Part shown: positions 3,032-63,556 of the stretch, piece after piece
Position numbering within the stretch: position 1 is the first letter of the stretch
How the letters are laid out: the number at the start of each line of letters is the position of its first letter
Assembly (NCBI GenBank): GCA_041600715.1
Contig: JBFIJM010000001.1
Span: forward strand, 387-64,386
Source: Candidatus Saccharimonadales bacterium
GTDB taxonomy: Bacteria > Patescibacteriota > Saccharimonadia > Saccharimonadales > 2-12-FULL-41-12
Reading direction: 5' to 3'
Length of the DNA stretch: 64,000 nt
Program-made: the position numbers and the translations under genes
Notes under the pieces: model-generated
What the model saw: only the letters and a program-made list of their open reading frames with translations
Databases searched by the model: none
What the model was told of the DNA's origin: nothing

Positions 3032-3094
3032 TTGTTAAGAATAGATTAGCTATGCTGTTAAGCATAAGAGATTAATATAAGAGGGAGTGCCGTA

Positions 3095-3556: not shown

Positions 3557-3620
3557 AAACAAGCTTAAGTGTTTGACATGCGACCACTAGTGTGCTATTA
3601 TTAGCCTAGTTTCGTTCAAA

Positions 3621-3660
3621 AAGAGGGTTCTTCTGAGAAATCAGAAGGCCCTCTTTGTAT
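3621..3660 (+). terminator. Stem-loop after the 3095..3556 gene
   Basis: AAGAGGG-tt-CTTCTGA GAAA TCAGAAG-g-CCCTCTT, two 7-bp helices. The downstream T-tract is weak. Confidence 0.55.
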
Positions 3661-3702
3661 TACGACTCTATATAAGACTTATATAATAAGGAGTGTCACA
3701 CT

Positions 3703-3903
3703 ATGGCAGGTACAAAATTAGGCGGTAAAGCGGCTGCTTCAACAAACAAGAACAAGTATGGTTCTGACTTCTATGCACGTATTGGTGCAATGGGCGGTAA
3801 AAAAGGTAAAACCGGTGGATTCTTTGCCAACCGAGAACTTGCACGTGCTGCTGGTGCTAAAGGTGGCCGAATTAGCCGACGCACTAAAAAAGTAGAAGCC
3901 TAA
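3703..3903 (+). CDS. KGG-repeat general-stress-type small protein (YciG/GsiB-like)
   Basis: AAGGAG SD. The sequence GGKKGKTGGFFANRELARAAGAKGGRIS fits the GG..GGF...A..AG.KGG stress-induced repeat pattern. Confidence 0.6.
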   Translation: MAGTKLGGKAAASTNKNKYGSDFYARIGAMGGKKGKTGGFFANRELARAAGAKGGRISRRTKKVEA

Positions 3904-3922
3904 ATTTAAGTTAGGTTAACTA

Positions 3923-3954
3923 ACAAAGACACCCGGCTAACTGGGTGTCTTTGT
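3923..3954. terminator. Shared hairpin between convergent genes (bidirectional terminator candidate)
   Basis: ACAAAGACACCC-ggctaact-GGGTGTCTTTGT, a 12-bp perfect stem followed by ATTTATT. It overlaps the last codons of the minus-strand gene. Confidence 0.65.
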
Positions 3955-4401
3955 ATTTATTCTGTAGGATCTGCAGAATCTTGATTTGCTTACCCTCCAC
4001 TGCTGACCACAGTTGACGCATATATATGTGGAGTTATCTGTCTGTAGCCCCGTTTGCGAACATCTCGTGCAGGAACTACGTTTGTGTAACCAGTCTCTAT
4101 AACTATCAAGACAGTCTTCTATGTAGTCGTTTTCAATGGTTATATTATAATTCTTGGAAAGCTGTTTGGCATAAGTCCATGCCTCAGACTCCATTTTTAG
4201 AAGCTCTAGATCGTTTTTATATGTACTATGGCCTGCCTGCATATGCCCAATTTCATGCAGTACAGACCAGAGTATGTTTGGTTGCTCGAGATTATAGAAA
4301 ATCTGTTTTGATTTAGGATCCCATCTTGATTTGTTTGACGCTACAAACTTAACGTCTCTGTAATCTATCCTTATTTGTTGTAATATTTGCTTGTCTGTCA
4401 T
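3937..4401 (-). CDS. Putative zinc metallopeptidase (HExxH) with C-terminal CxxC...CxxC zinc ribbon (SprT/ImmA-like)
   Basis: VLHEIGHMQAGH motif. C-terminal CTRCSQTG...YICVNCGQQW. Confidence 0.5.
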   Translation of the reverse strand: MTDKQILQQIRIDYRDVKFVASNKSRWDPKSKQIFYNLEQPNILWSVLHEIGHMQAGHSTYKNDLELLKMESEAWTYAKQLSKNYNITIENDYIEDCLDSYRDWLHKRSSCTRCSQTGLQTDNSTYICVNCGQQWRVSKSRFCRSYRINTKTPS

Positions 4402-27968: not shown

Positions 27969-30900
27969 ATGGACGAACACCAAAAACAAACACCAATGAC
28001 AGATATTACCCCAGGCGTAAGGCGGGAGGGGTTTGCTGTAATTGATAGGAAGATAAGCGTCAAGAAAGCTCCAGTGAGACTATCTGTTGATGAAAGAGGT
28101 AGTGTACCAGCCTCTGGTGAGATAGATGCAACTTCAGAAGATTTATCGTTAGGCTCCAGCTCTACAGCGACAGTTGTAGTGCCAAACCCTGTAGCCTCAA
28201 ACGTACCTACACCTCAGGCGATGTACGACGGGCATAATTTTGCAGGCAAGGGATCTAAGAAAAGAATTATTTTAACCATTAGTGCGTGGATGGGTGTGTT
28301 TGTACTCATCTCAGCAATTATTTTTGCCGTTGTTTCATCTAGAAGTAATGACGAAAATGCAGAAAACAAAGTTCAACCAATAACTTCAATACCTAAAGAA
28401 GATCTGCTTAGTGCATCACAAAAAGACTTTGGAACACGTAGCGAAGTAACTATAAATGGTCCTCTCCAGGTAAAGAATAAATTTACAATCAGTCCGTCCG
28501 AAAAGCCATTGAATCCACAAGCAGGTCAGATATATTTTGATGGTAAAACAAAACAATTTGTATTTTATGATGGAGAAGGTTACCAAACTCTCATAACTAA
28601 TCAGCTGTCTGATCAGTTCGGTTCATTGAGTCGGGCAGGACCGGGGACGGGGTTGTCACTTAGTGGCACTCAACTTAATAATAGCGGAGTTTTAAGCATT
28701 CAAGGACAATCGGGTAACCTGACAATAACAGGTGGGCCCGGTTTAGTCGTTAACGGCCTACAACTAGCCAATACCGGCGTGCTGTCTGTTCAAGGAACGG
28801 CCGGTAATGTTGTATTTAGCGGTGGAGCAGGTATTGCAGTAAACGGAACACAGATTAGCAATACAGGCGTCTTGTCAGTCGTCGGTACCGCTAACCAGGT
28901 TAGTGTTAGCACGGCAGGTGGAGTAGTGACCGTTTCACTGCCGCAGAACATCTCGACTAATTCATCGCCACTATTCAATGGGCTCAACTTAACCAATGCT
29001 TTATCGGTAGCAAACGGTGGCACAGGATCAAGTGCTATCAACTTTGTTGCAAACGGTTCAGTATATTACGACGGAACACGACTTGTTTCTACTTCTGCAC
29101 CAGCTAGTGCTGGCCTTTGTCTGATTAGCACCGCTGGCGCCCCAGCGTTTGGCACATGTCCTGGCTCCAGTGCGAGTATAGGTGGTTCGGGAACGCCTGG
29201 TGCTATCCCCTACTTTGACTCTGCCAACACAATCGCTGATTCAATAATGGTACAATCCGGATCGACAGTAACAGTTGCCGGAACCTTAGATGCTACATTT
29301 CTAGTGGGAGATGGCTCCAGTGTCACTAATGTTGATGCAACAGCTTTGAGTGGTCAGGGTTCTGCATATTATAGAAACGCATCCAATATAAATAGCGGTA
29401 TACTCGCCACTGCTTACGGCGGCACAGGCTTGGCAACGACCCCTGCTAACGGACAATTATTAATTGGTAACGGATCTGGCTATAGCCTTGGTACAATCGG
29501 TAATGGTGGCGGATTAACTGTAACTAACGGAGTCGGTACTATCAGTGTTGCGGTAAATTATGGTTCAACCGCCAACACCTCGGCAGAAGGTGATAAACAG
29601 ATAACTGTAACTGCTGGAACTAACTTAACTGGTGGCGGTGTTGTGACAATTGGTGCTGGCGGAACACTGACACTGAATGTTGCGAGTAGTCCAACCTTCT
29701 CGGGTAATTTAAGTGTTCAGGGTGGGTCCGCTACACTTGGCACTGTGTCACAAGCAGGTTCATTAGTGCTAAATGACGGTGCAGGCAATATTGGGACTCT
29801 CCAGGTGGCTTCGCTTGGGCAAGGAACTATTTATACCTTGCCCGATCCAGGTGTAGCCACAGCGACCATTTGTCTAACGACCAACAACTGTGTTGGTCCT
29901 AATGGTGGTGGCGTTACTTCAACTGGAACAGCTAATAAACTAGTAATATTTAGCGGTGGCGCATATAGCCTAGCTGATTCAATCGTTACTCAGTCTTCCG
30001 GCCTTATTACAGTAGACGGTAATCTTTCTGCGACTGCCCTGCAGGGCAACGGAGCAGGATTAACTGACCTTGATGCCGGAAACATAACCACTGGTATATT
30101 ATCAATCGCACGAGGCGGTACTGGTATAAGTCTAACTCCGAACAATGGACAGCTTCTGATAGGTAATGGTACTGGTTATAGTCTAGCTACAATAACCAAT
30201 GCTGATGGCACGGTAGAAATAGTTACTGGCCCAGGTAGTATACAGATCTCGGTTCCAAGAGCTGACCAGTGTGCGACTTGTGCAGACTATACACTTAGCA
30301 ACTTAGCAGATGTAATAGCTATAAATAAATCTCTGCTACCTGCATCTGCAGGCAGTATCAGTCTCGGTGGCGCAGGATTGCCATATCAATATCTATACCT
30401 CTCAGGGGATGAAGTAGCCAATCCAGGGAGTAATTACTTTACTATTACCGGCGATGCTTCTGCTCAGCGAACAATTACCTTGCCGGATGCATCCGGTATA
30501 GTTTGTCTCGATAACGGTAACTGTGCAGGTGCGGGCGGCGGCATAGTCGGTAGTTCTGCAGGTACCACAGGGTATCTCCCAGTCTATACGGGTAGCTACA
30601 CTATAGCTGACAGTATTGTCAGTCAATCATTGGGGGTTCTGTCTGTCGGTGGAAATTTGAACGTAAGTGGTAACGTCTCAATAACTAATGGCTTGACAGT
30701 AACAAACAATATTTCTGCTGCATCATTTAATAACCTTACCCTAACCGCTCTAGCAGATGGCTTCAGCTTATTGGGTGGAACAACCTCTCGAACGCTAACT
30801 GTGCAAGGCAGTAACATTACACTTAATCAAAGCCTTCAGACAACAGACACCCCAAATTTCTCGGGCCTCACTCTTTCTAACTCCCTAGGTGTAGCCTATG

Positions 30901-33900
30901 GGGGTACTGGTATTCTCGGTGGGCCAACAGCCAACGGTCAACTGCTGATAGGATCTAGTACTGGTAACTATACACGCGCTACTTTGACAGCAGGTAGCGG
31001 AATTGTTATTACGAATTCAGCAGGCGGTATAACAGTTGCTGCGCCAACCGCGGGTACTTGTACTTCTGGTTGTGCCGACCAGTCATTGTCTAATCTTGCA
31101 GCAATAAACATCAACACAAGTTTGCTTCCTAACTCAGGCAATACAGTTAGTCTGGGTTCTCTTACTCGCCCATTCCAGAGCATTCGTCTTAATAGTACTG
31201 CTGGCGCTCAAGGATTTAATATTACAGGTACGAATGCCACCGGCACGGAGGTTACTATAGCCTTGCCAGTATTGAATGGTACCGTTGCTTTGGTGCAAAC
31301 CGCAGGTTCTAGCACTACTCAAAACGGGGATCTGAATATCGGTGGAAATATAATCGGCAATAGGTTGATTAGTGGTCTAGTCGGTACAGATGACGGTACT
31401 TCGTCTTCCAATGTAATGCTTAGAAGTGGCAATGCAAGCTCCGGGAATTCCGGCAATGTATCTATTGACTCAGGAAGCGCTAGTGGTACTGCTGGCACAA
31501 TATCCATAGCAACTGTTAATGCGAGCGGATTGACTCTTGGTCGAGCTGGAGTGCAAGTTTCTATTCCTGGCGGACTGAACACTCAAGGTAGCGATATTGT
31601 TAGCCAAAACGGTAACCTTAACCTAGGAACTGGGAGCATCACATCTGGTAATATCAATGGACAGACTATTAGTAGTAGTGCAAACTTCACTGGTACAGTT
31701 CTAATACAAGGAGCTGATGCTCTTACTTTAGGAACTTCTGGAGCCAACACAGGTGCGATCATTTTCCGTAACCTTAACGGTAGCAACAGTGTGAAGCTCA
31801 AGGCATCCGACCTTAACCCAGGATCCGATATAACATTTACTCTACCAAATGCGCTACCAGGAAGCACCGAGTGTGTGACGCTCAGCGCTACTGGCCAATT
31901 TGGATCACAAAACTGTAGCGGTGGCTTAACCGGTAGTGGTAGTGATGGCACATTCTCAATATTTACTTCAGGTGGTACTGCATTGACTGACTCTATACTG
32001 TCTCAGAGTAGCAATACCCTAACTATTCAAGGCTCAAGCAGTAATCTAGTCGTAAGTGGCGGAACATCTGGTGGATTGGGTAATAACTCCATATCACTAG
32101 GAACAGCATCGTCACGTACTGGTGGAATCAACTTTTATAATGAAAGTAACGCCAACGTAGCATCGATAGTAAGTGGAACATCTGCCAATAGTTACACGCT
32201 TATTCTGCCGACCGATCTAGATACAACCGGAAAGTGTCTAAACGTCGGCGCAGGTGGACAAATCGGCTACTTCTCATGTGTATCTAGCGGTGGCGGTGGT
32301 GGAACAGGAGTAACTGGAAGTGGTACGACTGACAGGTTAGTACGATGGACAGACGGCGGTTTATCTGTTGTAGGCGATTCAGTAGTTCGAGACAACGGAA
32401 CACGTGTCGGTATCGGTATTGCACCTGATGCAACTGCAGTGTTTGTAGTTGGAAGTAGTGGCGCATTCAAGGTAACAAATGCAGGCGCCTTGACCTCTGC
32501 CGGAATTACGAATAGTTCTGGAGGTATAGATAACAGCAGTAGTGGTATCACAAATACCGGAGCAATTTCTGGGGCTACAAGTGTCAGTGCCTCAGGCTTA
32601 ATCTCTACTAGCGCAAATAATCAGGCGCTTACACTCAGTGGTGCGCCGACTAATAGCGCAACGCAATCACTTCTACAGATTGGTAGTGCGATTGTGGGCG
32701 GTAATACATCGGCAAACGGTGGAACATACATAGGACTAAACGCGCCAAATAGTGGTGCTGGCTCTGTTGCAGATTTAATAAATCTTCAGAAGAACGGGGT
32801 CAGTCTCTTTAGGGTTGCAACAACCGGCGCCGTCACTGCAGGGACTTACAATAGTTTGTCATTACAAGCAAATGCCACAGGCTTTCAGGTTGCTGGCGGT
32901 ACGGCATCAAGACAGTTGACTGTAACAGCGAATGCTACGATTGATCAAAACTTGGCTGTAGGTAGTAACGTAAGTTTTGGTACGCTGACTCTAAGTACGG
33001 CATTAAGCCCAGCTAACGGTGGTACCGGAATCGCAGGTGGACCTACAGCTGATGGTCAACTACTCATTGGTTCTGCCGGAGGCACATATACACGGTCTAC
33101 CCTTACAGCTGGAAGCGGGATCAATATCTCTAATGCATCGGGCTCGATAACTATCAGTTCACCAAGTGCTGGATCTTGTTCTACATGTGCTGATAGACAG
33201 CTAAGCAATCTGACTGGAACCACAGCTATACCAGTAGATCTCTTGCCATCATCTGCAGGCACGATTAACATTGGCTCTGACACTGCTCCATTCAATAGTC
33301 TGTATGTAGGCACCGACGGTAACGCCTTCAGGATAACTGGCACAGCGACTTCAGATCAGACAGTGACTTTGTTTGATGCAGGCGGGCCAAGTGAAATATG
33401 TGTCAAATACAACGGCGGTGCCAACAGCAACTGTTCTGGTACCGGTGGTGGTATTACAGGTAGTGGAGCTGGCACATCGGGAACAATACCGGTGTATACT
33501 GGAAGTTATTCAATTGCTGATAGTATCTTGAGCCAGTCGGCCGGTGTAGTATCTGTAGCAGGTGGCTTAAGTGCTACTGGCGGTGTCAACTTCTCAAGTA
33601 CTCTTGCCGTAACCAATGCAGTTACAGGTGGAACTTTCAACGGGCTAACACTCACCTCAGCATCAGACGGATTCACCATAAATGGCGGTACTACTCCACG
33701 AACTCTGACAGTTCAAGGGGCAAATGTATCGATAAACCAGAGCTTACTGACATCTAGCAACGTCACATTTGCAGGAGTTACTGCATCTGGCAACCTGAGC
33801 ATTACAGGAACCAGCACACTCACTGGAGCAGTTACCGCATCGTCAATCGCTCCTCCAGCTTCAACAGCGTTTATTCTGGGTGCGAACGGTGCTGGACAGA

Positions 33901-35549
33901 CTACTAATCTTCAGGGTAGTACTATTACGTTCACTAACGGGGCTCGTACCTATGGATTCAATAGCGTTGCTTCTGGATCGCACACAATTTGTGATTCAAG
34001 TGGTAACTGCGCTAGCGCGGGCGGTGGTGTCACTACTGTCGGCGGTACTTTAAATAAATTAGCCAAGTTTAGTGGTTCGCAGACAATCGTAGACTCAGTA
34101 TTCAGTGATGATGGTACAAACGGTACAATCTCTGGGAGCTTGTCTATACAAGGAACAACCCTTTCAGGTAGCGGTGCACTGACGGTGGCTAGTACTGGTG
34201 GCGCCAACAACCTTACTCTTAACTCCGGTTCTGGCACTATTATCTTCGGTGCCAATACTTTCCAACGCACTGCAACCGGGGGTGTAACCTTCGACCTAGT
34301 TGATGTTAACCCGACTACGTTCACCGTAACAAATAGTCATGGTACTGGAGTTGCTAATCTGAGCGTGGAAGGCTCTGGCACTTTCGGTGCAGGAGTAACA
34401 TCAACTGGTGGAGTGGTAAATCTCAACGCCAGCTCAAACAACGCAACCAACATAAACACCGGTACTAGTACAGGAGCTGTCGCAATAGGTAATAGCGCTA
34501 CTTCAAGCCTGACCATCGAATCTGGCACGGGTACTACAAGTCTATTTAATGGAGCAACTGCTCACACTATAAACTTCGCTACTGGAGCGGCTTCTCAGAG
34601 TATAACAATAGGATCCATTAATACTACAAGTCTTACCAAGATCCAGGGTGGCGCAACAGGAAGTGTCAGCATCGGAGCGGTCCTGGCAGAGACTAACAGC
34701 TCAACAGTCAATATTGCAAACACGAGTAATGCAACAGGCACTCAGACGGTCAGGATTGGCTCAACCGCGAATTCTGCCAACTCCACTATTTTGCAGTCTG
34801 GATCAACCAACGGCGTTATCGTAAGGTCCGACGGCACCACTGGATTTAGAGTTCAAAATGCCAGCGGAAGTACGACTATATTTACCGTAGACAGCACCAA
34901 CTCCATAGTTACCATAGGTAGTGCCACAGGTTCACTTACAGGCAGAGACCTTGTAGTAGCAGATCTTGATGTTACAACTTCACTTCGTGTGGGTAATGGC
35001 ACAAACGGGGTGAGCTTCAATGATGCGACATCTGGTAAGTTCCGCCTCAGTGGTACAGCTCGTAACTCCAAGAAACTCTTGTTAACCGCAGAATATGCAG
35101 GCTTAGTTCTTGACCCAGACGGCAGTAACAACATAGGGTCTGCTACCAGTGCATTCGATGCAACCCAAAGGGAAAGCTACTATAACTGGAGTACAACTCA
35201 AGCGACAAATCAGGACTATGACTTTGTTGTTCAGGTGCCACTACCGAGCGATTTCGACGGACTTGATGGCAGTAATCCGATAACCATCGACCGCTGGACA
35301 AGCAATACTACTAACGGAACTATTACAGCCACACTTTTAGATACAGCTGGCTCAGCCGTAATTAACTGGAACTCATGTTCGCTTACCCCAGGTAGTTCAA
35401 GTACTTGGACAACTACAACTGGATGTTCGATATCAACAGGAACCTTCACTGCTGATGGAGTAATTACTCTACGGATAAAACTTCAGGCACCACAGAACGG
35501 CAACACAAGAATCGGTAATATAACAATAAATTACTTAAGTAAGTTCTAA
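27969..35549 (+). CDS. Giant (2526 aa) membrane-anchored surface protein built from concatenated tail-fibre-like modules
   Basis: Uninterrupted 7.6-kb ORF with an N-terminal TM (ILTISAWMGVFVLISAIIFAVV). Seven CysX5-13Cys plus Gly-rich junctions, each followed by a G..(N)KL..F(S/T)G....(A/V)DS.(V/L).Q motif. Four GGTG..NGQLLIG units. Three C..CAD..LSNL....LLP..G...(L/I)G units. A beta-sandwich-like C-terminus. Confidence 0.85.
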   Translation: MDEHQKQTPMTDITPGVRREGFAVIDRKISVKKAPVRLSVDERGSVPASGEIDATSEDLSLGSSSTATVVVPNPVASNVPTPQAMYDGHNFAGKGSKKRIILTISAWMGVFVLISAIIFAVVSSRSNDENAENKVQPITSIPKEDLLSASQKDFGTRSEVTINGPLQVKNKFTISPSEKPLNPQAGQIYFDGKTKQFVFYDGEGYQTLITNQLSDQFGSLSRAGPGTGLSLSGTQLNNSGVLSIQGQSGNLTITGGPGLVVNGLQLANTGVLSVQGTAGNVVFSGGAGIAVNGTQISNTGVLSVVGTANQVSVSTAGGVVTVSLPQNISTNSSPLFNGLNLTNALSVANGGTGSSAINFVANGSVYYDGTRLVSTSAPASAGLCLISTAGAPAFGTCPGSSASIGGSGTPGAIPYFDSANTIADSIMVQSGSTVTVAGTLDATFLVGDGSSVTNVDATALSGQGSAYYRNASNINSGILATAYGGTGLATTPANGQLLIGNGSGYSLGTIGNGGGLTVTNGVGTISVAVNYGSTANTSAEGDKQITVTAGTNLTGGGVVTIGAGGTLTLNVASSPTFSGNLSVQGGSATLGTVSQAGSLVLNDGAGNIGTLQVASLGQGTIYTLPDPGVATATICLTTNNCVGPNGGGVTSTGTANKLVIFSGGAYSLADSIVTQSSGLITVDGNLSATALQGNGAGLTDLDAGNITTGILSIARGGTGISLTPNNGQLLIGNGTGYSLATITNADGTVEIVTGPGSIQISVPRADQCATCADYTLSNLADVIAINKSLLPASAGSISLGGAGLPYQYLYLSGDEVANPGSNYFTITGDASAQRTITLPDASGIVCLDNGNCAGAGGGIVGSSAGTTGYLPVYTGSYTIADSIVSQSLGVLSVGGNLNVSGNVSITNGLTVTNNISAASFNNLTLTALADGFSLLGGTTSRTLTVQGSNITLNQSLQTTDTPNFSGLTLSNSLGVAYGGTGILGGPTANGQLLIGSSTGNYTRATLTAGSGIVITNSAGGITVAAPTAGTCTSGCADQSLSNLAAININTSLLPNSGNTVSLGSLTRPFQSIRLNSTAGAQGFNITGTNATGTEVTIALPVLNGTVALVQTAGSSTTQNGDLNIGGNIIGNRLISGLVGTDDGTSSSNVMLRSGNASSGNSGNVSIDSGSASGTAGTISIATVNASGLTLGRAGVQVSIPGGLNTQGSDIVSQNGNLNLGTGSITSGNINGQTISSSANFTGTVLIQGADALTLGTSGANTGAIIFRNLNGSNSVKLKASDLNPGSDITFTLPNALPGSTECVTLSATGQFGSQNCSGGLTGSGSDGTFSIFTSGGTALTDSILSQSSNTLTIQGSSSNLVVSGGTSGGLGNNSISLGTASSRTGGINFYNESNANVASIVSGTSANSYTLILPTDLDTTGKCLNVGAGGQIGYFSCVSSGGGGGTGVTGSGTTDRLVRWTDGGLSVVGDSVVRDNGTRVGIGIAPDATAVFVVGSSGAFKVTNAGALTSAGITNSSGGIDNSSSGITNTGAISGATSVSASGLISTSANNQALTLSGAPTNSATQSLLQIGSAIVGGNTSANGGTYIGLNAPNSGAGSVADLINLQKNGVSLFRVATTGAVTAGTYNSLSLQANATGFQVAGGTASRQLTVTANATIDQNLAVGSNVSFGTLTLSTALSPANGGTGIAGGPTADGQLLIGSAGGTYTRSTLTAGSGINISNASGSITISSPSAGSCSTCADRQLSNLTGTTAIPVDLLPSSAGTINIGSDTAPFNSLYVGTDGNAFRITGTATSDQTVTLFDAGGPSEICVKYNGGANSNCSGTGGGITGSGAGTSGTIPVYTGSYSIADSILSQSAGVVSVAGGLSATGGVNFSSTLAVTNAVTGGTFNGLTLTSASDGFTINGGTTPRTLTVQGANVSINQSLLTSSNVTFAGVTASGNLSITGTSTLTGAVTASSIAPPASTAFILGANGAGQTTNLQGSTITFTNGARTYGFNSVASGSHTICDSSGNCASAGGGVTTVGGTLNKLAKFSGSQTIVDSVFSDDGTNGTISGSLSIQGTTLSGSGALTVASTGGANNLTLNSGSGTIIFGANTFQRTATGGVTFDLVDVNPTTFTVTNSHGTGVANLSVEGSGTFGAGVTSTGGVVNLNASSNNATNINTGTSTGAVAIGNSATSSLTIESGTGTTSLFNGATAHTINFATGAASQSITIGSINTTSLTKIQGGATGSVSIGAVLAETNSSTVNIANTSNATGTQTVRIGSTANSANSTILQSGSTNGVIVRSDGTTGFRVQNASGSTTIFTVDSTNSIVTIGSATGSLTGRDLVVADLDVTTSLRVGNGTNGVSFNDATSGKFRLSGTARNSKKLLLTAEYAGLVLDPDGSNNIGSATSAFDATQRESYYNWSTTQATNQDYDFVVQVPLPSDFDGLDGSNPITIDRWTSNTTNGTITATLLDTAGSAVINWNSCSLTPGSSSTWTTTTGCSISTGTFTADGVITLRIKLQAPQNGNTRIGNITINYLSKF

Positions 35550-35551
35550 TC

Positions 35552-38500
35552 ATGAGCGAGCGTGAATACGAACTGATTAAACGAACTATACTCATCGAGA
35601 AACGAACGTTCTTGAATAATTCTAATAACGTCCAGAAATTTGTAAATAATAATAGAGTTAACAAAGTGTTTAGTCATATTTTGAGTCGTCATCCTCGACC
35701 ATTTATGTATTTATCACTTTGCTTGTTGCTACTATTTCAATCTGTTGGCATGGCTCTACTGCCTTCGCTAGCTAACCCTGACAAACTCTACAACCTCTCT
35801 GATGAGACCCAACAATTGACAGGCAAGACCAACGATACTTTATCCAAGAGACTAACCTACGACCCAGAAAAGAAGATCTACCAGTACAACAAAGAAGCCG
35901 CTCCAGCCGGAAACCCAGGTAGTCCAGAAGAAGCAATGGCTTCTGCTCAGCAAAGCCAAAAGGTAGGCGGAGGAGCTGACAACTACACTGTAGACTTATC
36001 CGTTGACCCAACCAAAGGCGTCACTGTCCGCGATGCTACCGATACTTCTGGCTCACTAGCCATCAGTATGGTTCCTCAGTTTGGAGCCCGAGAAGGTAAA
36101 CAAAAAGACGGACGTATAATCTATCCACTAAAAGGTAAGAAAGGTCACCTAGTCTACAGTGTTAAAGCCAATGGTCTCAAAGAAGATATTGTCCTAAGCG
36201 AAGAACAAGGCAATGACCTAGACTTTAGCTACAAACTAAACCTCCCAGAAAGCCTAGAAGCTAAACTACTAGATAACGGCAGTATTGGTATATACTCTGC
36301 CGACACCACACTGTTTGGTAACATCTCCTTTGGCTCAGACCAAGACAGAGATAGGGTAGAGAAAGCCAGAAAGAACGCCGAGAAGAACAACCTAGTCTTC
36401 AATATACCCGCACCAGTAGTAGTCCAAGCCAACAAAGATAACCAAACAAACAGCAAAGATAACCAACAAGACACCAACGAAACCAAGAAAGACAACACAG
36501 TAAAGTCTAAGTTTGAACTAAACGGAGACACCCTAACCGTCAAAACAACCGGACTAAAGAACGCTAACTACCCACTAAGCATAGACCCATCCGTAGCCGT
36601 AACCAGTGCCAGTGACTTCGCTAAAGGCAACCTAGAAGACGGCATAGAGATAGACACCACCAACAACCAGATAAAGAGAGCAGGACTGACTGGGGGGAGT
36701 GTGGGGTCGTGGACGACGGATGGCGGAACAAGCTTTAGTGGTACAAGAACATACGCCGGAACGGTGGCATATAACGGCTATCTTTATCTAATTGGCGGAT
36801 CAGGATCTGGAGGTTATCGGACAGATACTCAATACGCCCCCATAGATCCAAGTGGAGAGATAGGAGCTTGGACTACCAGCGCGTACTCTTTCACAACTGG
36901 TAGAGATAGATTTATGGCTGTGACATACAATGGCTACATTTACATCATGGGTGGCTTTGCTTCCAGTACTTACTACAGGGATGTGCAATACTCAAAAATA
37001 CAGTCAGATGGCTCAATAGGAGCTTGGTCGTCTCTTGCTAGTTTCAATACTCCAGCGCGGTTTGGACACGCAGGCTTTGCATACAACGGCTATATCTATA
37101 TTACTGGCGGGTGTACAGCTGATAACATCATATCTTGTACTGCCTGGACTACGAATGTCCAGTATGCTTCCATCAATGCGGACGGAACACTTGGAGCTTG
37201 GACAAATAACCCCAACAGTTTTCTCAGCGCTAGGTATGGTCACTCAGCCACCGTCTACAACGGTTATATGTACATCATGGGGGGAAATATACAGGGAGGA
37301 AACGCAAACATCATTCAGTACGCATCTATAAATGCTGACGGTAGCGTAGGTACGTTCGCTGTTAGTGCTAACAACTACACGACTAACAGGCAGGAGCACA
37401 CCACTATAGCACTAGCTGGATATCTATACGTCATGGGGGGGAACAACGGTGGTTCATTCCTTAATACTGTTCAGTATGCACCGATTAATGCGGACGGAAG
37501 TATCGGAGTCTGGTCGACATCCACAAATTTCACTACAGCACGCTTCGGTCATGCAAGCATCGCATATAATAACAAGTTGTATATCATTGGAGGTTGTAAT
37601 GCTGGAGCATGCAGTAGCTGGCTTGGAGACGTACAGTATACGTCGATTGATCCGGCGGGCGTTACCAGCACCTACTCTACAACTACATCTTTATCGTCCA
37701 CTAGGTTCGGACACGCATCGGTAACTTACAACGGATACTTATACGTCGTAGGGGGGAATGTAGGCGGTTCATTCAGCGGTAATATCTCCTATGCTCCAAT
37801 AAATTCTAACGGAACTGTTGGCGCTTGGGCTACCGCAGGAACATTTACCACAGCCAGATATCTTTTGACTGCCGTAGCCTATAACGGCCACATGTATATT
37901 ATGGGTGGAACAGACGGAACATACAGGAACATCACACAGTATGCACCCATAAACTCGAACGGCACTCTAGGTACCATAAATAGCACCACGACAACGTTTG
38001 CGGGTGTAAGATCTACTTTTGCATCGGTAGCATACAATGGATATATGTACGTTACTGGTGGCTATAATGGCACAACAAGCATAAGCAGTATCCAATATGC
38101 GCCTATAGATAGCAACGGTAATATAACAACAACTTGGACTGCAGGCACAAACATGTCTGCAAACATCAACGGTCACGCAGTCGTAGCATTTAACAACAAG
38201 CTATATCGCCTAGGAGGAAACAACAACGCGACCGTAGAATACCTTACTATTAATAGCGACGGATCTCTTAGCGCCAGTTGGACTGCTACGACAAGTTTTA
38301 CAACCGGTCGCACACAGTTCTCGGCTACGTTCGACAAGGGTTATATGTATATCTTTGGCGGAGGTAACAACAGTGGCACTTACTATAATGATGTTCAATA
38401 TGCCCTGGTAAATGCTGACGGTACTATCAGCGCTGGTGCATGGAAAACAACACAGAGCATTACCACGGCCCGAGATTTGATGGGGGCTGTGATCCACGGC

Positions 38501-40033
38501 GGTACAGCCTATATTACAGGAGGACGTCATGCCACTACTGATACTGCATGCCATGGTAGTTCAAGCCAATTTTGCTCTGACGTACAGTATGCTCGAGTAA
38601 ATAACGGAGGTACTGGCAGAATTGGAACCACGACAGAAGTTAGTAATTTTTCTAATGAGAGAGGAAGATCCGCGACCGTGGCCTATAACGGTTATCTGTA
38701 TGTGATAGGGGGGTTTCATACCCAAGCACCAGCAGGGGTATTGTCCGATGCACAGTATGCCCCAATCTTATCCGATGGGTCACTCGGAAGCTGGCAATCT
38801 GCGGGCACCGGTGGAACATTGGCGAGTAGCGTCCAGTGGGCTAAAGCACAAGCAAGAAATGGCTATATATATCTTTCGGGAGGCGTATCAAATTCTGGAG
38901 TGTTCCAGGGGGTTAACTACGCTCTAGTTTGCACAGGCGAGAATAACGGAGTACAGGGATGTAACTCAACGCCCGGCACTCTTGGTACATGGACTTCTGC
39001 CGAGGCCGGGGGCTCAATACCTGTTAAATCGTCTGGGAGTGCCATTGCTTTGGTTGACGACTATATATATGTGATGGGGGGCTGTACCAGTTATTCTGGC
39101 ACTAACTGCATATCATTATCTCAATCAGTATATTTCGCTCGTTTCAACTCTAATGGAACCTTGGGGGCTTGGCAATCTACAAATGCATATGGTAACTCAC
39201 GACATTATTACTCTACCTTCGCGTCAAATGGATATATATATCTAAGTGGCGGATGTAATATAGATTGTTCAACTAAGTACGCCGATGTTCAATATTCTAA
39301 AATCCAATCTGACGGGAGTCTAGCGGTTTGGCAAACAACCACAAGATTACCTGAAGCGTCAATATACGCTTCAGGCTCTTCGGCAAACGGGTATGCCTAC
39401 ATTGTGGGAGGTCAGAATTCTTCTGTTAGGTTAGCTTCGGTTTATTTTGCAACAATAAATTCTAACGGAACCATTGGCGACTGGTTTAAAGTGAGCACAA
39501 CTTTTGCCGGTGGTACAGGACTGGACCAAAGTGATGTAGCAAATTATAACGGTTATTTATATGCAACTGGAGGCATATATGACACAGGTAGCACTAATGA
39601 TGTCCATAAAATAGGTCTAAACTCAATTGACCGCAAAGGTTCGTATTCGTACTTGGTTGATCTGGCAGGAGACGGCGTATTAACCAAAATATTAGCACAA
39701 GGCTTAGCCACAAAAGGCTCGAAGATACATTTTGGAGGCAGGAACTCACTGGTTTCTAGTACTTCGTTTGGTGCGACTTCTTTTAACCTAGGTTTTTTAC
39801 CAGGCTCTTTAGTTACTATTCCCGCTACAGAGAGTCGATATAGACAGCTTAAATTTGTTTTAGATGATACTCAAAGCTCAGCATTCCCAGACATTATGAG
39901 CCCCCAGTCTACTCTAGATGATTTTGAGGCGTACTTCAGGGCAGCAACTGATGGTTCAGGCTCTAAACGCCTGAGAGGTGGTAAGACCTTCACCACAGAA
40001 CAGCAACGCTCCCTAGACGCTCAACCACAATAA
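35552..40033 (+). CDS. Large (1493 aa) membrane-anchored protein with about 18 Kelch-like beta-propeller blades
   Basis: The ATG lies 2 nt after the stop of the giant gene. TM FMYLSLCLLLLFQSVGMALL. The unit YNGY.Y..GG....(~15 aa)..QYA.I..DG..G.W......T.R.GH occurs 18 times. Confidence 0.85.
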   Translation: MSEREYELIKRTILIEKRTFLNNSNNVQKFVNNNRVNKVFSHILSRHPRPFMYLSLCLLLLFQSVGMALLPSLANPDKLYNLSDETQQLTGKTNDTLSKRLTYDPEKKIYQYNKEAAPAGNPGSPEEAMASAQQSQKVGGGADNYTVDLSVDPTKGVTVRDATDTSGSLAISMVPQFGAREGKQKDGRIIYPLKGKKGHLVYSVKANGLKEDIVLSEEQGNDLDFSYKLNLPESLEAKLLDNGSIGIYSADTTLFGNISFGSDQDRDRVEKARKNAEKNNLVFNIPAPVVVQANKDNQTNSKDNQQDTNETKKDNTVKSKFELNGDTLTVKTTGLKNANYPLSIDPSVAVTSASDFAKGNLEDGIEIDTTNNQIKRAGLTGGSVGSWTTDGGTSFSGTRTYAGTVAYNGYLYLIGGSGSGGYRTDTQYAPIDPSGEIGAWTTSAYSFTTGRDRFMAVTYNGYIYIMGGFASSTYYRDVQYSKIQSDGSIGAWSSLASFNTPARFGHAGFAYNGYIYITGGCTADNIISCTAWTTNVQYASINADGTLGAWTNNPNSFLSARYGHSATVYNGYMYIMGGNIQGGNANIIQYASINADGSVGTFAVSANNYTTNRQEHTTIALAGYLYVMGGNNGGSFLNTVQYAPINADGSIGVWSTSTNFTTARFGHASIAYNNKLYIIGGCNAGACSSWLGDVQYTSIDPAGVTSTYSTTTSLSSTRFGHASVTYNGYLYVVGGNVGGSFSGNISYAPINSNGTVGAWATAGTFTTARYLLTAVAYNGHMYIMGGTDGTYRNITQYAPINSNGTLGTINSTTTTFAGVRSTFASVAYNGYMYVTGGYNGTTSISSIQYAPIDSNGNITTTWTAGTNMSANINGHAVVAFNNKLYRLGGNNNATVEYLTINSDGSLSASWTATTSFTTGRTQFSATFDKGYMYIFGGGNNSGTYYNDVQYALVNADGTISAGAWKTTQSITTARDLMGAVIHGGTAYITGGRHATTDTACHGSSSQFCSDVQYARVNNGGTGRIGTTTEVSNFSNERGRSATVAYNGYLYVIGGFHTQAPAGVLSDAQYAPILSDGSLGSWQSAGTGGTLASSVQWAKAQARNGYIYLSGGVSNSGVFQGVNYALVCTGENNGVQGCNSTPGTLGTWTSAEAGGSIPVKSSGSAIALVDDYIYVMGGCTSYSGTNCISLSQSVYFARFNSNGTLGAWQSTNAYGNSRHYYSTFASNGYIYLSGGCNIDCSTKYADVQYSKIQSDGSLAVWQTTTRLPEASIYASGSSANGYAYIVGGQNSSVRLASVYFATINSNGTIGDWFKVSTTFAGGTGLDQSDVANYNGYLYATGGIYDTGSTNDVHKIGLNSIDRKGSYSYLVDLAGDGVLTKILAQGLATKGSKIHFGGRNSLVSSTSFGATSFNLGFLPGSLVTIPATESRYRQLKFVLDDTQSSAFPDIMSPQSTLDDFEAYFRAATDGSGSKRLRGGKTFTTEQQRSLDAQPQ
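36698..39622 (+). repeat. Array of about 18 Kelch-type repeats (period about 50-60 aa) within the 1493-aa protein
   Basis: I counted 18 occurrences of [YKHT].[YA][ILVRA].[GS]GG blade cores, from YLYLIGGS to YLYATGGI. Confidence 0.8.
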
Positions 40034-57643: not shown

Positions 57644-57667
57644 ATAGTATAATCAGGAGCATCATTG

Positions 57668-58375
57668 ATGATCCAACCGCATACATTACTACCACACGAG
57701 ATACTGCCACATACTCCAGAACTTGAGAAGGCTATGCCCGAAGCTTCAGATGTAGGGCACTCGTTTGTTGCCAACGGTATCGGTTCCTTGGCTTTAGAAG
57801 CCATGGTTCATGAGGCTAATAGTTTGAGTATGGAAGAAGGTGACCACATAGCTAGCCCTATATATGCAGGTACAAAGAAAGAAATTCGGCAACTACATGA
57901 TCGTTCTTATCATGCCATTGGCGATGATGAAGTGCCTTTTGCGACCAAAGTAACCAGGCAGTTAGCGGTGCATGTTAGACAACTTTCTAGGGTATATCCT
58001 GAACTCAAAGAATGGATGGCAACAGAGGCTGGCTACCAGCTCTACAAGAATGACCCAGAACATGATTATCATATTTCTAGACACAGAGACCGCAGAAACG
58101 ATCACTTACTCTCGGCAACGATAACCGTAACTGGCAGTGCATTAGTAAAGATGTATGAACCGATAAATGATCCTGACGACTATACAGATGAAAACATGTG
58201 TCAGATAGATGAACACATTACTCTTCCTGGAGATATTATGTTCCTTCGGGCACCCGGGTTGAATACCGGTGTTCAGACTATCCACGAAGTGCTACCCCCG
58301 CGAGGAAATGACGATCGTCTGATTCTAAATCTGCGAATGCGTGATGATATCCTTCCTGCACCTGAAGAAGTTTAA
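57668..58375 (+). CDS. Hypothetical protein, possible 2OG-Fe(II)-oxygenase-like (HxD...H...R)
   Basis: ISRHRD (HxD), then about 70 aa later TIHEV, then RLILNLR. An AGGAG lies 8 nt before the ATG at 57668. Confidence 0.35.
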   Translation: MIQPHTLLPHEILPHTPELEKAMPEASDVGHSFVANGIGSLALEAMVHEANSLSMEEGDHIASPIYAGTKKEIRQLHDRSYHAIGDDEVPFATKVTRQLAVHVRQLSRVYPELKEWMATEAGYQLYKNDPEHDYHISRHRDRRNDHLLSATITVTGSALVKMYEPINDPDDYTDENMCQIDEHITLPGDIMFLRAPGLNTGVQTIHEVLPPRGNDDRLILNLRMRDDILPAPEEV

Positions 58376-60112: not shown

Positions 60113-60601
60113 ATGGCATTACAGAAGGCAACATTGGGTGCAGGTTGTTTCTGGGGCGTACAATATTATTTCGATCAAATCCCAGGAGTTATCAAATCTA
60201 CTGTAGGGTACACCGGAGGTACCACAGAAAATCCAACCTATGAACAAGTTTGTAGTCATAAAACAGGTCATGCAGAAGCGGTAGAATTAGAATATGACCC
60301 TGATCTAGTTAACTTCGACACGATTCTAAAGCATTTTTTTCATATGCACGATCCTACACAGCTAAATAGACAAGGTCCAGACGTGGGCGATCAGTATCGT
60401 TCGGCAATTTTTTACCATGACGAACCGCAGAAAATCGTCGCCGAAATTGTTATAAAGAATGTATCTAAAGATTTTAAGAAACCAATCGTAACTACTTTAG
60501 AGCCAGCAACAATTTTTTATCCTGCAGAGAAAGAGCATCAGAAGTATACAGAAAACACTGGACACGGAATGTGCCACATAGAATACAAGAGCCTGTATTA
60601 A
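60113..60601 (+). CDS. msrA: Peptide methionine-S-sulfoxide reductase MsrA
   Basis: GAGCFWGVQ active site, GYTGG....PTYE.V, and HAE.V.. .YDP. Confidence 0.93.
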   Translation: MALQKATLGAGCFWGVQYYFDQIPGVIKSTVGYTGGTTENPTYEQVCSHKTGHAEAVELEYDPDLVNFDTILKHFFHMHDPTQLNRQGPDVGDQYRSAIFYHDEPQKIVAEIVIKNVSKDFKKPIVTTLEPATIFYPAEKEHQKYTENTGHGMCHIEYKSLY

Positions 60602-60663
60602 CCCAGCTAGCTAAGGTATGTTATAGTGTTGGCATACGAATCTAACAGGGAGATTAAGGGATT

Positions 60664-61611
60664 ATGGCCACAAAAGCCAAGAAACCAGCCGTCAAAAAAA
60701 CGGCTAAAAAGCCAGCTACAAAGTCTGTCGCTAAAACTAGTAAGACTGTAGTAAGTAGAAAAGTTGCCAAAAAATCAGCACCGAAGAAATCTAAATCTAA
60801 GCCAAGCGTAGCAGTGACAACCAAGGTTACTAGATCAAAAGTTGTTTTGACGCCTCTAGAACGGATACGAAGCACACATCTTTCCGTCGCAATTACGAGT
60901 GTCTTTTTTGCTGTTATGACAGCATTCTTTGTTGGATCTGCAAGCTCGGAAATAATGCTTGCTTCACAAGCACGCGACGCTTTTACTAACACAGAGTCAG
61001 TAGTACTTAGTTCTGCCAGCGAAGTTTTATTTAGTCTAGAATATAAGTATATTCTGATTGCTATCCTAGCTTTTAGCGCAGTCGGTTCATTATTACTCGC
61101 TACTAAATTACGAACTAGATATGAATTATCAGTTAAATCTGGTGTATCAGGATTTAGGTGGCTTCTAGTAGGGTTAACGGCTGGGCTAACTCTACAGCTA
61201 GTAAGCTTTATTGGTGGCGTCCAAGATCTGATGACTCTTAAACTGATTGGTGCTCTAATTGTGGCTACAGTATTGCTGGGATGGGTTGCAGACAGAGATA
61301 ATGCTACGAGTAAAAAACCAAAATGGTTAGCTTTTATCGCTAGTCTTTACACTGGTGCATTAGCTTGGTTTCCACTTGTAGGCTCAATGATCGGTACAAC
61401 CGTATATGGTAGTGAAAGATTTGGATGGCATGTTTATGCCCTCGCAGGTGTTGCACTTGCTGGTTTTACAGGCTTCGCCGTAACTCAGTATTTATCAATC
61501 AAGAACAAGAATTCCTTAGAATATACAGTTTATGAACAACGTTATCTACGAATCGATCAACTTACTAAGTTTTTGGTAGTCGTTATTGTATTCAGTGCCT
61601 TTGCTAAATAA
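60664..61611 (+). CDS. Heliorhodopsin-family 7-TM protein with lysine-rich (H1-like) N-terminal extension
   Basis: Seven hydrophobic segments. Landmarks shared with the reference heliorhodopsin (recalled from memory): RI...HL, RY....FRW, LLGW, TQYL.IK.K and E.RY, then eight residues later a TM7 lysine (K302). The N-terminal 62 aa are AKKPAVKKTAKKPATK... type. Confidence 0.65.
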   Translation: MATKAKKPAVKKTAKKPATKSVAKTSKTVVSRKVAKKSAPKKSKSKPSVAVTTKVTRSKVVLTPLERIRSTHLSVAITSVFFAVMTAFFVGSASSEIMLASQARDAFTNTESVVLSSASEVLFSLEYKYILIAILAFSAVGSLLLATKLRTRYELSVKSGVSGFRWLLVGLTAGLTLQLVSFIGGVQDLMTLKLIGALIVATVLLGWVADRDNATSKKPKWLAFIASLYTGALAWFPLVGSMIGTTVYGSERFGWHVYALAGVALAGFTGFAVTQYLSIKNKNSLEYTVYEQRYLRIDQLTKFLVVVIVFSAFAK

Positions 61612-62876
61612 TGCCAAAGGCCCCAGAACTTCTTAAGGTAACAATAGACAAGCTCGTCCATGGCGGGCAAGGAATCGGTACGCTTGAAAACGGGAAAAAA
61701 GCCTTAGTTTGGGGCGTACTACCGGGGGAGAAAGTCACTTTTTACGCTACTAAAGTTCGCAGGGATTTTGTGGAAGGCGTAGTGAAAGATGTTGTAAAAG
61801 CATCAAGCCATCGCATAGACCCTAGGGACGATTTATATATAAGCACAAGTCCTTGGCAAATTATGCCTTATGATCTCGAAAATGATACTAAGAAGCAAAT
61901 TCTTGCCGATACTTTAGCTAGAGCCGGTATTAATTATGATAAGCCTCTAACGTTCCACTTTAACGCCGAACAATGGAATTATCGAAATAAGATGGAGTAC
62001 AGTTTTTACGGAGATGACGACGGACTTCACCTTGCATTATTTAACCGTGGTAGCCACCGGAAACAAGCTGTCGATGGAAGTAGCCTGGCTAGACCTGAGA
62101 TAGATATTGTAGCTAACAAGATCTGTAAGATCTTAGACAAAAACAAAATCCGGGCAAGTGATTTGAAGAGCGTAGTCATTCGTTGCGATCAAAAGGGCGC
62201 ATGTGTAGTAGCAGTATACGTGCGTAATCAAGAATTCAAGGAAATAGCCGGGCTAAACAATGTGGCTAAGGGTATTGTTGTAACTTACTCTAATCCTAAA
62301 AGCCCAGCAAGTGTTAGAACTCAAGACTTATATAAATTTGGAGATATATCCTTAACCGATACACTGCTGGTTAAGCCAGTATCATACGATGTTTTTTCTT
62401 TCTTCCAGGGTAACTTACCGATATTTCAGAAGACTTTAAAAGATATCTCTGATGAAGTAAATGAAAGCCCAGCTATAGATATGTTTAGTGGGGTAGGGGC
62501 TATCGGTTTATCATTACCTAGCGTTAGTATTCTCGTAGAAAGTGATGCGAATAACGTGGTCTGGGCTCGCAAGAATACCGGCTTAGAACGTTCTGCAGAA
62601 GTAATACACGCGACTAGCGAACGAGCTCTCGAGTATATCGATAGTATGCATGTATTGATCGTTGACCCGCCACGTTCTGGTTTACATAAAGACCTAACAG
62701 ACCAGATATTAAATGCCGAACCTCCCAAAGTTTTATATTTGAGTTGTAACCCAAGTACGCAGGCAAGAGATCTTTCTATTCTTCAAGAAAGATATGCTAT
62801 CAAGCAAATAACTGGCTATAATTATTTTCCACGCACCCCACACATCGAATCTTTAGCTATACTAGAACTAAGATGA
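61611..62876 (+). CDS. TRAM-domain RNA (uracil-C5)-methyltransferase, RlmD/TrmA family
   Basis: N-terminal TRAM (KLVHGGQGIG...), then DMFSGVGAIG, DPPRSGL and a YLSCNP catalytic Cys region. No Fe-S cysteine cluster. The start overlaps the upstream stop (TAATG). Confidence 0.8.
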   Translation: MPKAPELLKVTIDKLVHGGQGIGTLENGKKALVWGVLPGEKVTFYATKVRRDFVEGVVKDVVKASSHRIDPRDDLYISTSPWQIMPYDLENDTKKQILADTLARAGINYDKPLTFHFNAEQWNYRNKMEYSFYGDDDGLHLALFNRGSHRKQAVDGSSLARPEIDIVANKICKILDKNKIRASDLKSVVIRCDQKGACVVAVYVRNQEFKEIAGLNNVAKGIVVTYSNPKSPASVRTQDLYKFGDISLTDTLLVKPVSYDVFSFFQGNLPIFQKTLKDISDEVNESPAIDMFSGVGAIGLSLPSVSILVESDANNVVWARKNTGLERSAEVIHATSERALEYIDSMHVLIVDPPRSGLHKDLTDQILNAEPPKVLYLSCNPSTQARDLSILQERYAIKQITGYNYFPRTPHIESLAILELR

Positions 62877-63556
62877 GAATACATAGATTTTACGTAGGGA
62901 ATGAAGTAAGCCTGAAAAAAGATTTTTGGCTCCATGGTGAAGCTCTTTTATGGCAATGGAACAAGGTCTTAAGATTTCAAGAAGGACAGCAGGTCATTCT
63001 GTTTGACACTAATCTTACTGAGAGACTCTATAATATTGAGAAGCTTTCCAAAACCGAAGCCCACTTATTAATGATCACTGAGTATGAACCCAGGCTACCG
63101 TCTAAGCATGTTTATTTATTCTGGAGCTTACTAAAACGGGATAACAACGAACTAATTTTGCAGAAAGCAACCGAGTTAGGGGTATCAAACTTCATACCAC
63201 TCATTACTGATCGAACAATCAAGAAAGATTTTAATTTTGAGAGAGCAAAAAAGATTATTATAGAAGCATCAGAACAATGCGGTAGAACATCTATCCCTCA
63301 CGTTCGCGAGCCTATCCATCTTCAAAAAGCGTTACCTGAATATAGTGATAAGTTCCCGATATATGTATGTCAGCAAGGCCATGACAGGGTAGATGTAAAA
63401 GAGAAAAAACTCGGACTACTTATCGGCCCAGAAGGTGGCTGGTCAGCGAATGAACTTGCATTCTTTTCAGATAATAACTATCAGCACCTGAGCATTAGCG
63501 ACTTTGTACTACGTGGCGAAACCGCCTCAATAGTAGCGACATCGAAAGTCCTATAA
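62873..63556 (+). CDS. rsmE: 16S rRNA (uracil1498-N3)-methyltransferase RsmE
   Basis: MRIHRFYV start, and LLIGPEGGWS near the C-terminus. The start overlaps the upstream stop (ATGA). Confidence 0.85.
   Translation: MRIHRFYVGNEVSLKKDFWLHGEALLWQWNKVLRFQEGQQVILFDTNLTERLYNIEKLSKTEAHLLMITEYEPRLPSKHVYLFWSLLKRDNNELILQKATELGVSNFIPLITDRTIKKDFNFERAKKIIIEASEQCGRTSIPHVREPIHLQKALPEYSDKFPIYVCQQGHDRVDVKEKKLGLLIGPEGGWSANELAFFSDNNYQHLSISDFVLRGETASIVATSKVL

Follow-up and report, generated by a model that had tools for sequence, protein, structure and literature searches.

A 64,000-nucleotide stretch of a Candidatus Saccharimonadales chromosome (contig JBFIJM010000001.1, positions 387 to 64,386; hereafter the window) encodes a heliorhodopsin (HeR) in which the carboxylate predicted to face the retinal Schiff base appears to have changed helices. 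The canonical counterion glutamate of helix C (transmembrane helix 3, TM3) is replaced by leucine, and the serine that canonically stands four residues before the Schiff-base lysine on helix G (TM7) is replaced by aspartate; relocation of the counterion from helix C to helix G is well supported by comparison with 54 aligned relatives and with the structurally characterized HeR 48C12. The same protein begins with a 62-residue polycationic tail. Our preferred reading, to which we give a probability of about 0.6, is of a retinal-binding photoreceptor that would use Asp298 as counterion and proton acceptor, signal toward the cytoplasm and employ its tail as an electrostatic tether. The gene and its relevant elements, in window positions (BR, bacteriorhodopsin), are:

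60664 to 61611, plus strand: HeR open reading frame (ORF), ATG start, stop codon included, 315 residues.
60664 to 60849, plus strand: polybasic, disordered, predicted cytoplasmic tail, residues 1–62 (19 Lys, 2 Arg, no Asp or Glu; isoelectric point, pI, about 12).
60853 to 61602, plus strand: seven-helix core, residues 64–313, with a β-hairpin in the A–B loop (AlphaFold).
60898 to 60900, plus strand: codon of Ser79, in place of 48C12 His23 (hhalign register; MAFFT agrees).
61087 to 61089, plus strand: codon of Ser142, in place of 48C12 His80 (Ser in 47/54 relatives).
61165 to 61167, plus strand: codon CTA of Leu168, at the canonical TM3 counterion position (48C12 Glu107, BR Asp85).
61195 to 61197, plus strand: codon of Gln178, equivalent to 48C12 Val117, in the outer half of helix C, which is normally hydrophobic.
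61549 to 61551, plus strand: codon of Arg296, a clade-specific helix G arginine equivalent to 48C12 Val235 (Arg in 44/54 relatives).
61555 to 61557, plus strand: codon GAT of Asp298, the proposed relocated counterion (48C12 Ser237, BR Asp212 site).
61567 to 61569, plus strand: codon AAG of Lys302, at the Schiff-base lysine position (48C12 Lys241).

Family membership is supported by both sequence profiles and fold. The ORF matches PF18761 (Heliorhodopsin) at 83.2 bits over residues 84–311 (Pfam; gathering cut-off 26.7) and gives no match to the type-1 rhodopsin family (PF01036, Bac_rhodopsin) in Pfam at E ≤ 1. A phmmer search of PDB sequences returned heliorhodopsins alone (TaHeR, 6is6, E 2e-12; 48C12, E 5e-7), a profile of the 54 relatives finds TaHeR at E 1.5e-24, and hhalign pairs the family profile with an alignment of canonical HeRs over 250 columns (probability 100, E 3.5e-45). 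Against the NCBIfam HeR equivalog NF038020 the ORF scores 78.7 bits, below the cut-off of 100, whereas P0097, a relative that keeps an acid in TM3, lies above it at 105.8. An AlphaFold model of the ORF product, built from the family alignment, has a mean predicted local distance difference test score (pLDDT) of 87, with residues 64–315 mostly above 90; its helices span residues 64–89, 127–146, 163–183, 189–214, 222–248, 255–280 and 287–313, and strands 94–102 and 117–126 form the two-stranded A–B loop hairpin typical of HeRs. Foldseek comparison of the model with the PDB places TaHeR (6is6) first (template modelling score, TM-score, 0.89, root mean square deviation 2.1 Å) and 48C12 next (0.83–0.87), whereas type-1 rhodopsins reach only ~0.4–0.7 at 5.5–11.6 Å. 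The initial annotation had called this ORF a seven-helix HeR-family protein from its letters alone, and both the assignment and the gene boundaries hold: profile searches give significant HeR matches, and the predicted bundle superposes on TaHeR and 48C12. Its sequence landmarks (RY-x10-FRW, LLGW, TQYLSIK and E-x-RY-x7-K) align as described, save in TM1, where the register was seven residues off and hhalign pairs His72, not with 48C12 His23, but with Asn16.

Since lysine and arginine are concentrated on the predicted cytoplasmic loops of the model (29 against 3 outside; 8 against 3 with the tail excluded), the positive-inside prediction supports the N-in orientation of HeRs and thereby a cytoplasmic N-terminus, as the initial annotation had assumed for the tail. 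An identical protein (P0001) is found in public data on a 771-kb contig.

The case for a moved counterion is built on aligned residues with published contacts: Glu107 and Ser237 of 48C12, which stand in place of BR Asp85 and Asp212, respectively, both hydrogen-bond directly to the Schiff base (Kovalev 2020, PMC7049168). Residue correspondences were taken from the hhalign profile alignment to 48C12, with which the phmmer and MAFFT alignments agree; both the codons and hhalign confirm the earlier observation that Leu168 occupies the TM3 glutamate position and Asp298 the TM7 serine position, and Lys302 falls, as proposed, on Lys241. Much of the remaining core is retained (Arg165, Trp166, Tyr153, Glu291 and Ser138 for 48C12 Arg104, Trp105, Tyr92, Glu230 and Ser76; Phe268, Gln275 and Trp235 for Phe206, Gln213 and Trp173), Asp210 keeps an acid at the site of Glu149, and His72 replaces Asn16. 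In 48C12, His80 is the proposed secondary proton acceptor, and conformational change is described as spreading along two routes, His80–His23–Gln26–Trp246 and His80–Asn16–Tyr92–Glu230–Arg104–Glu149 (Tsujimura 2022, PMC9726877). The two routes fare differently here. Both histidines are lost (Ser142, Ser79), the outer cluster Gln26/Ser242/Trp246 has become Phe82/Phe303/Val307 and Tyr108 has become Val169; the cytoplasmic network His72 (Asn16)–Tyr153–Glu291–Arg165–Asp210 is intact. Further polar features set the clade apart: column 178, Gln in the ORF product, holds Glu in half of the relatives (27/54), and Lys193, Arg296 and an ERFGWHVY motif at the E–F loop are conserved.

A search of 5.8 billion clustered proteins yielded 58 close relatives (~290–336 residues, 38–100% identity, PF18761 in all), and 54 of them (38–72% identity) were aligned. 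The sole relative with a source name derives from Candidatus Saccharimonadales, and the genome loci all belong to Saccharimonadia/Saccharibacteria metagenome-assembled genomes (MAGs). The column equivalent to Glu107 is acidic in none of the 54 (Leu 18, Phe 11, Ala 11, Ile 5, Val 4, Ser 4, Thr 1), that equivalent to Ser237 is Asp in 49 and Glu in two (51/54, with one each of His, Asn and Gly), and lysine is kept at position 302 in 52. Both members that have lost the lysine also lack the aspartate (TM3, TM7 and lysine columns reading L-H-L in P0014 and L-N-M in P0016). What had looked like a single odd gene is instead one of a family of at least ~60 sequences within a larger Saccharimonadia HeR radiation, and the putative counterion swap is a conserved character of this clade.

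To view the swap across the radiation, 1.84 billion representatives at 50% identity were searched with HMMER, giving 503 matches at E ≤ 1e-3, and the best 150 of these 503 were aligned with 48C12. Among the 105 lysine-bearing representatives, an acid is present at the TM3 site only in 69, at the TM7 site only in 26, at both in 3 and at neither in 7, such that the two are almost mutually exclusive (Fisher p 4e-15, with no phylogenetic correction); such a distribution would follow if a single negative charge adjacent to the Schiff base were required and had passed in this lineage from helix C to helix G. Representatives acid-free at both sites usually lack the lysine as well (23/30), and lysine is lost in 37 of 142 overall. 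In a neighbour-joining tree, most TM7-acid representatives group with the ORF product in a single large block, and a few others are scattered (among them K-E-K, G-D-K, Y-D-K and S-D-R at the same three columns). The TM3-acid forms P0127 (E-N-K) and P0097 (D-S-K; named "heliorhodopsin HeR" at NCBI) lie directly upstream of a TRAM/(uracil-5) RNA methyltransferase gene, as do the TM7-acid forms, namely the window gene, P0067 (M-D-K) and those of several MAG loci, and because both forms occupy one locus they are positional orthologues.

Two further groups in the radiation stand out. A large tail-bearing sister group (positions 3093–4136 of locus L009, 3200–4144 of locus L010, and P0097–P0200) has Asp rather than Glu at the TM3 site and Asn, Ser or Gly four residues before the lysine (often NxxxK); its locus, too, is upstream of the TRAM/U5 methyltransferase, and some of its tails reach 100–130 residues. 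Arginine replaces the Schiff-base lysine in 11 of 142 representatives (P0096, P0105, P0116, P0121, P0134, P0141, P0158, P0169, P0177, P0128 and P0151), and a TM3 or TM7 carboxylate is kept in 9 of these 11 as against 5 of the 26 in which the lysine is otherwise replaced; in retinal-free HeR-like proteins, an Arg–carboxylate pair may stand in for a protonated Schiff base with its counterion.

The second unusual element, the N-terminal tail, is 31% lysine, the remainder drawn largely from Ala, Thr, Ser and Pro with KKPA/PKK motifs, and residues 1–60 are modelled with pLDDT ~50 and no secondary structure (AlphaFold). Nearly all of the 54 relatives share an M-A-T start followed by 38–89 residues in which sequence drifts while the lysine-rich composition is kept, as expected of a disordered region under selection. 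The tail is not confined to the clade: across the wider radiation, 87 of the 135 representatives have an N-terminal extension of at least 30 residues (median 57 residues; Lys+Arg 30%, Asp+Glu 1.8%; Lys 26%, Thr 19%, Ala 16%, Ser 11%, Val 8%, Pro 4%). As TM3-acid relatives also carry it, the tail is independent of the counterion swap and, to judge from its distribution, is the older of the two. We considered whether lysine-rich tails are a genome-wide habit and rejected this, since HeR is essentially the sole carrier among ~265 ORFs (~100 in the window, ~165 in related loci), bar one protease and antisense shadows.

The tail had been likened to histone H1. Its length, its 21 Lys/Arg residues, its freedom from acids and its conservation all stand; the likeness to H1 is compositional only, and homology was rejected, the tail alone scoring 13.5 bits (E 0.065) against the histone-H1-like NCBIfam model NF038053, whose cut-off is 80. 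It matches no Pfam domain, and histone H2B in the PDB scores E 2.2. "H1-like" should therefore be read as "polycationic and disordered". The tail-coding region also contains a run of seven A (60693–60699, GTC AAA AAA ACG) that could be prone to slippage, and is overlapped by an antisense ORF (60654–60992, minus strand, 112 residues, Leu/Phe-rich), which we dismissed as a gene, regarding it as a shadow of the AAG/AAA-rich coding strand.

The HeR gene sits in a compact array:

60113 to 60601, plus strand: msrA, peptide methionine sulfoxide reductase (PF01625, E 1.5e-63).
60598 to 60627, plus strand: promoter-like TTAACC-18-TGtTATAGT; weak, not enriched over shuffles.
61611 to 62876, plus strand: TRAM/(uracil-5) RNA methyltransferase (PF05958 and PF01938).
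62873 to 63556, plus strand: rsmE-type RNA methyltransferase, the next gene of the array (PF04452 and PF20260), syntenic in most loci.

As the initial annotation described, msrA ends at 60601, 62 nucleotides upstream of the HeR ORF, the HeR stop codon (TAA, 61609–61611) overlaps the methyltransferase ATG by one nucleotide, and rsmE follows. The promoter it assigned to the HeR gene fared less well: the string is present, but the region has no more promoter-like matches than shuffled sequence (5 found, 9.7 expected), and we rejected it as evidence. Scans of a genome and a metagenome collection with a single peptide pattern added 5 and 4 loci, respectively, a sample suited to synteny and not to a census. 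An msrA gene adjoins the HeR gene in 8 of 13 distinct Saccharimonadia loci, divergently in 2 of them; the TRAM/U5 methyltransferase is directly downstream in 10 of the 12 loci whose downstream side is visible, and the two genes often overlap or nearly abut. In one locus without a methyltransferase downstream of the HeR gene (L008), the greA homologue lies in two overlapping pieces in different frames (3279–3741), which suggests a frameshift or an assembly error.

HeRs have been proposed to be related to photo-oxidative stress (Chiriac 2022, PMC9166423), and the adjacency of msrA is consistent with that suggestion. It would also be in keeping with precedents of HeRs that act through bound enzymes, namely glutamine synthetase, photolyase and an ABC transporter (PMC9529153, PMC9769723, PMC11109279).

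The rest of the window, a piece of Saccharibacteria chromosome at 43% GC, has a housekeeping character, with genes for S2, EF-Ts, RRF, RseP, a class II aminoacyl-tRNA synthetase, GreA, LysRS, FtsA, FtsZ, ParAB and RNR. No type-1 rhodopsin gene is present among the 34 window ORFs scanned against Pfam. Between greA and lysS lies an ORF for a 236-residue acidic protein (57665–58375, plus strand; pI 5.1) that has no Pfam match and was not detected in related loci by tblastn. Two long ORFs adjoin on the plus strand, one of 2526 residues without a Pfam match (27969–35549) and one of 1493 residues with many Kelch repeats (35552–40033); their products are possibly giant surface proteins of an episymbiont. 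A 926-residue protein (251–3031, plus strand) has two matched stretches of Peptidase_S74, an intramolecular chaperone of endosialidase and tail-spike proteins that is usual in phage tail fibres or surface fibres.

How might such a protein work? Retinal would probably be acquired from the surroundings, as it is by other Saccharibacteria rhodopsins: type-1 rhodopsins of this lineage bind external retinal within seconds, and retinal-synthesis genes are generally lacking (Jaffe 2022, PMC9296517). Lys302 and retinal would then form a protonated Schiff base, with the stabilizing negative charge supplied by Asp298, one turn below Lys302 on helix G, in place of the helix C glutamate that has given way to leucine. 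Because the histidines of the relay that leads from Glu107 to His80 and His23 are also gone, Asp298 would likely be the primary proton acceptor as well. The 48C12 counterpart of the cytoplasmic network His72–Tyr153–Glu291–Arg165–Asp210 is thought to open on illumination, and with that network kept, a light-induced change would still reach the cytoplasmic face. There the polycationic tail would most plausibly serve as a tether or recruiting arm for an anionic partner, the candidates being acidic enzymes such as the neighbouring MsrA (pI 5.65), RNA or ribosomes, DNA, and anionic lipid. Retinal binding, the roles of Asp298, the direction of signalling and any partner of the tail are inferred. A broader proposal, that a lineage-wide class of Saccharimonadia HeRs uses a disordered polycationic arm to couple light to ribosomes or RNA, to the nucleoid or to acidic repair enzymes such as MsrA, one clade of it having a helix G aspartate as both counterion and acceptor, we regard as improbable; if true, it would present a HeR whose proton acceptor can be identified and whose output module is physically tractable.

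Several points weigh against the photoreceptor reading. The Fisher test ignores shared ancestry, and the TM7-acid state is mostly one large clade; seven lysine-bearing representatives are acid-free at both sites, so a carboxylate is not strictly required, and in Glu107 mutants of 48C12 bound anions can substitute for it (PMC7049168). The 34 window ORFs scanned against Pfam include no retinal-synthesis gene. Profile searches detect no homology of the tail to any DNA-binding family, and in a compact genome genes that share an operon need not be related in function.

The retinal question leads directly to one alternative, that the protein is a retinal-free, light-independent member of the opsin fold, for example a scaffold or membrane organizer anchored by its tail. 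Its case is made by the absence of retinal-synthesis genes from the 34 scanned window ORFs (Pfam) and from Saccharibacteria generally (PMC9296517), and by loss of the lysine in 37/142 radiation representatives. Within the clade, by contrast, Lys302 is kept in 52/54 and Asp298 in 51/54, the two are lost together and the retinal-pocket residues are conserved; Saccharibacteria type-1 rhodopsins, moreover, take up external retinal within seconds (PMC9296517), and we consider a retinal-free role unlikely. Equally hard to favour is light-driven or light-gated transport of ions or protons, with a conduction path created by the type-1-like DxxxK arrangement and a polar or acidic residue in outer helix C. 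Asp298 does occupy the BR Asp212 site, position 178 (48C12 Val117) is Glu in half of the relatives (27/54) and Gln here, Lys193 and an ERFGWH motif are retained close to the outer face, and the viral heliorhodopsin V2HeR3 is described as transporting protons (PMC9448325). The ORF product nevertheless has no titratable chain across the membrane, its helices offering Leu168, Val169 and Gln178 and being otherwise hydrophobic; the equivalents of BR Asp85 and Asp96 are non-acidic, and the fold and cytoplasmic network resemble those of non-transporting HeRs.

Two other alternatives concern the tail. It might be a nucleoid or ribosome tether, an H1-like DNA/RNA-binding arm that couples light to nucleic-acid transactions; this would explain an operon with two RNA methyltransferases, one of them directly downstream in 10/12 loci, and would suit a composition like that of H1 C-terminal domains and bacterial H1-like proteins, reflected in the weak match to NF038053. 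That match, however, is far under the cut-off (13.5 against 80 bits), the tails of the radiation are rich in Lys, Thr, Ala and Ser with 4% Pro and therefore look like generic polycations, neighbouring genes in a streamlined genome say little about a common function, and acidic proteins or anionic lipid would fit equally well as partners; the specific nucleic-acid role is accordingly doubtful, if worth keeping in mind. That the tail is an annotation artefact, with the true start near TM1, is scarcely credible. An in-frame TTG (Leu62, 60847–60849) does stand just before TM1, and the gene calls of a few relatives have no tail, but codon 1 is followed by no further ATG ahead of TM1, its own ATG is closely preceded by purine-rich AGGGAG/AAGGGA motifs, and the M-A-T start and an open frame of 40–100 lysine-rich codons persist in more than 50 relatives (38–72% identity) and in 87/135 wider representatives, with composition kept despite sequence drift. 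The mis-called start that the initial annotation had held out as grounds for abandoning its proposal is thus set aside, and the tail is present in related genomes, which it had proposed to survey for the same fusion.

Placed against existing surveys, the photoreceptor reading builds on known ground. Eighty HeRs have been reported in Saccharimonadia (Chiriac 2022, PMC9166423), and the HeR motif of the surveys comprises TM3 E-S-L and TM7 SxxxK (PMC8612252, PMC9166423, PMC9601134), the commonest forms being SLVAK, SLIAK and SFVAK (Chiriac 2022, PMC9166423; Bulzu 2021, PMC8612252). The ORF product lacks this canonical combination (Glu107 with SxxxK), as does its clade, and P0057, the only clade member with a visible NCBI name, is listed as "hypothetical protein". 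In open-access full text we found no description of a HeR clade with a helix G aspartate and no helix C carboxylate, nor of a polybasic HeR tail; Saccharimonadia HeRs as such are known, and the D-x3-K clade and the polybasic tail are apparently new. Surveys keyed to SxxxK, and the NCBI equivalog cut-off, miss the proteins of this clade, and HeR diversity in the Candidate Phyla Radiation is therefore probably under-counted.

The general function of HeRs and their primary proton acceptor have been open questions since 2018, and the clade bears on both. It is in effect a natural evolutionary "mutant", in which the helix C glutamate and both cavity histidines are gone and an aspartate stands at the helix G residue that touches the Schiff base, and its positional orthologues with the ordinary arrangement offer a swap-back system. 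The tail, for its part, is a concrete handle on HeR partners, in Saccharibacteria whose light biology depends on borrowed retinal. Swap-back system and tractable output module together should be of real interest to rhodopsin specialists.

With the canonical HeRs 48C12 and TaHeR (PDB 6su3, 6uh3 and 6is6) the ORF product shares the Pfam family, the fold, the A–B hairpin and the N-in topology, at an identity of only 16–22%; these carry Glu on helix C and Ser four residues before the lysine where the ORF product has Leu168 and Asp298, they lack the conserved Arg296 and Lys193, and their N-terminal tails run to ~10 residues rather than 62. The Saccharimonadia HeRs already surveyed (Chiriac 2022; Bulzu 2021) come from the same host lineage and have the same proposed gene link to oxidative stress, and tail-bearing TM3-acid relatives such as P0097 occupy the very locus of the window gene; the surveyed proteins are SxxxK, whereas the clade is D-x3-K without a TM3 acid.

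Type-1 rhodopsins in general share only the DxxxK spacing with the ORF product, which gives no PF01036 match and is predicted to have the opposite membrane orientation. Among them, halorhodopsins and anion channelrhodopsins have the helix G aspartate (BR Asp212 site) as their only Schiff-base carboxylate; like the ORF product, they have D-x3-K on helix G and lack an acid at the BR Asp85 site, a likeness that is convergent.

For the tail there are two points of reference. Bacterial H1-like proteins (NF038053), exemplified by the lysine-rich Hc1, AlgP and HupB tails, are likewise disordered, acid-free polycations rich in Lys, Ala, Pro and Thr; they are soluble nucleoid proteins, whereas the tail described here, which has no significant homology to them, is attached to a predicted seven-helix photoreceptor. 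Among HeRs, at least 10 variants of N-terminal extension have been recorded, of which only the Zn-ribbon and MORN fusions could be assigned (Bulzu 2021, PMC8612252). MORN-HeR and Zn-ribbon-HeR also carry, ahead of the HeR core, a cytoplasmic N-terminal element to which signalling or recruitment is ascribed; theirs are folded domains, whereas that of the ORF product is a low-complexity, disordered polycationic tract without a profile match.

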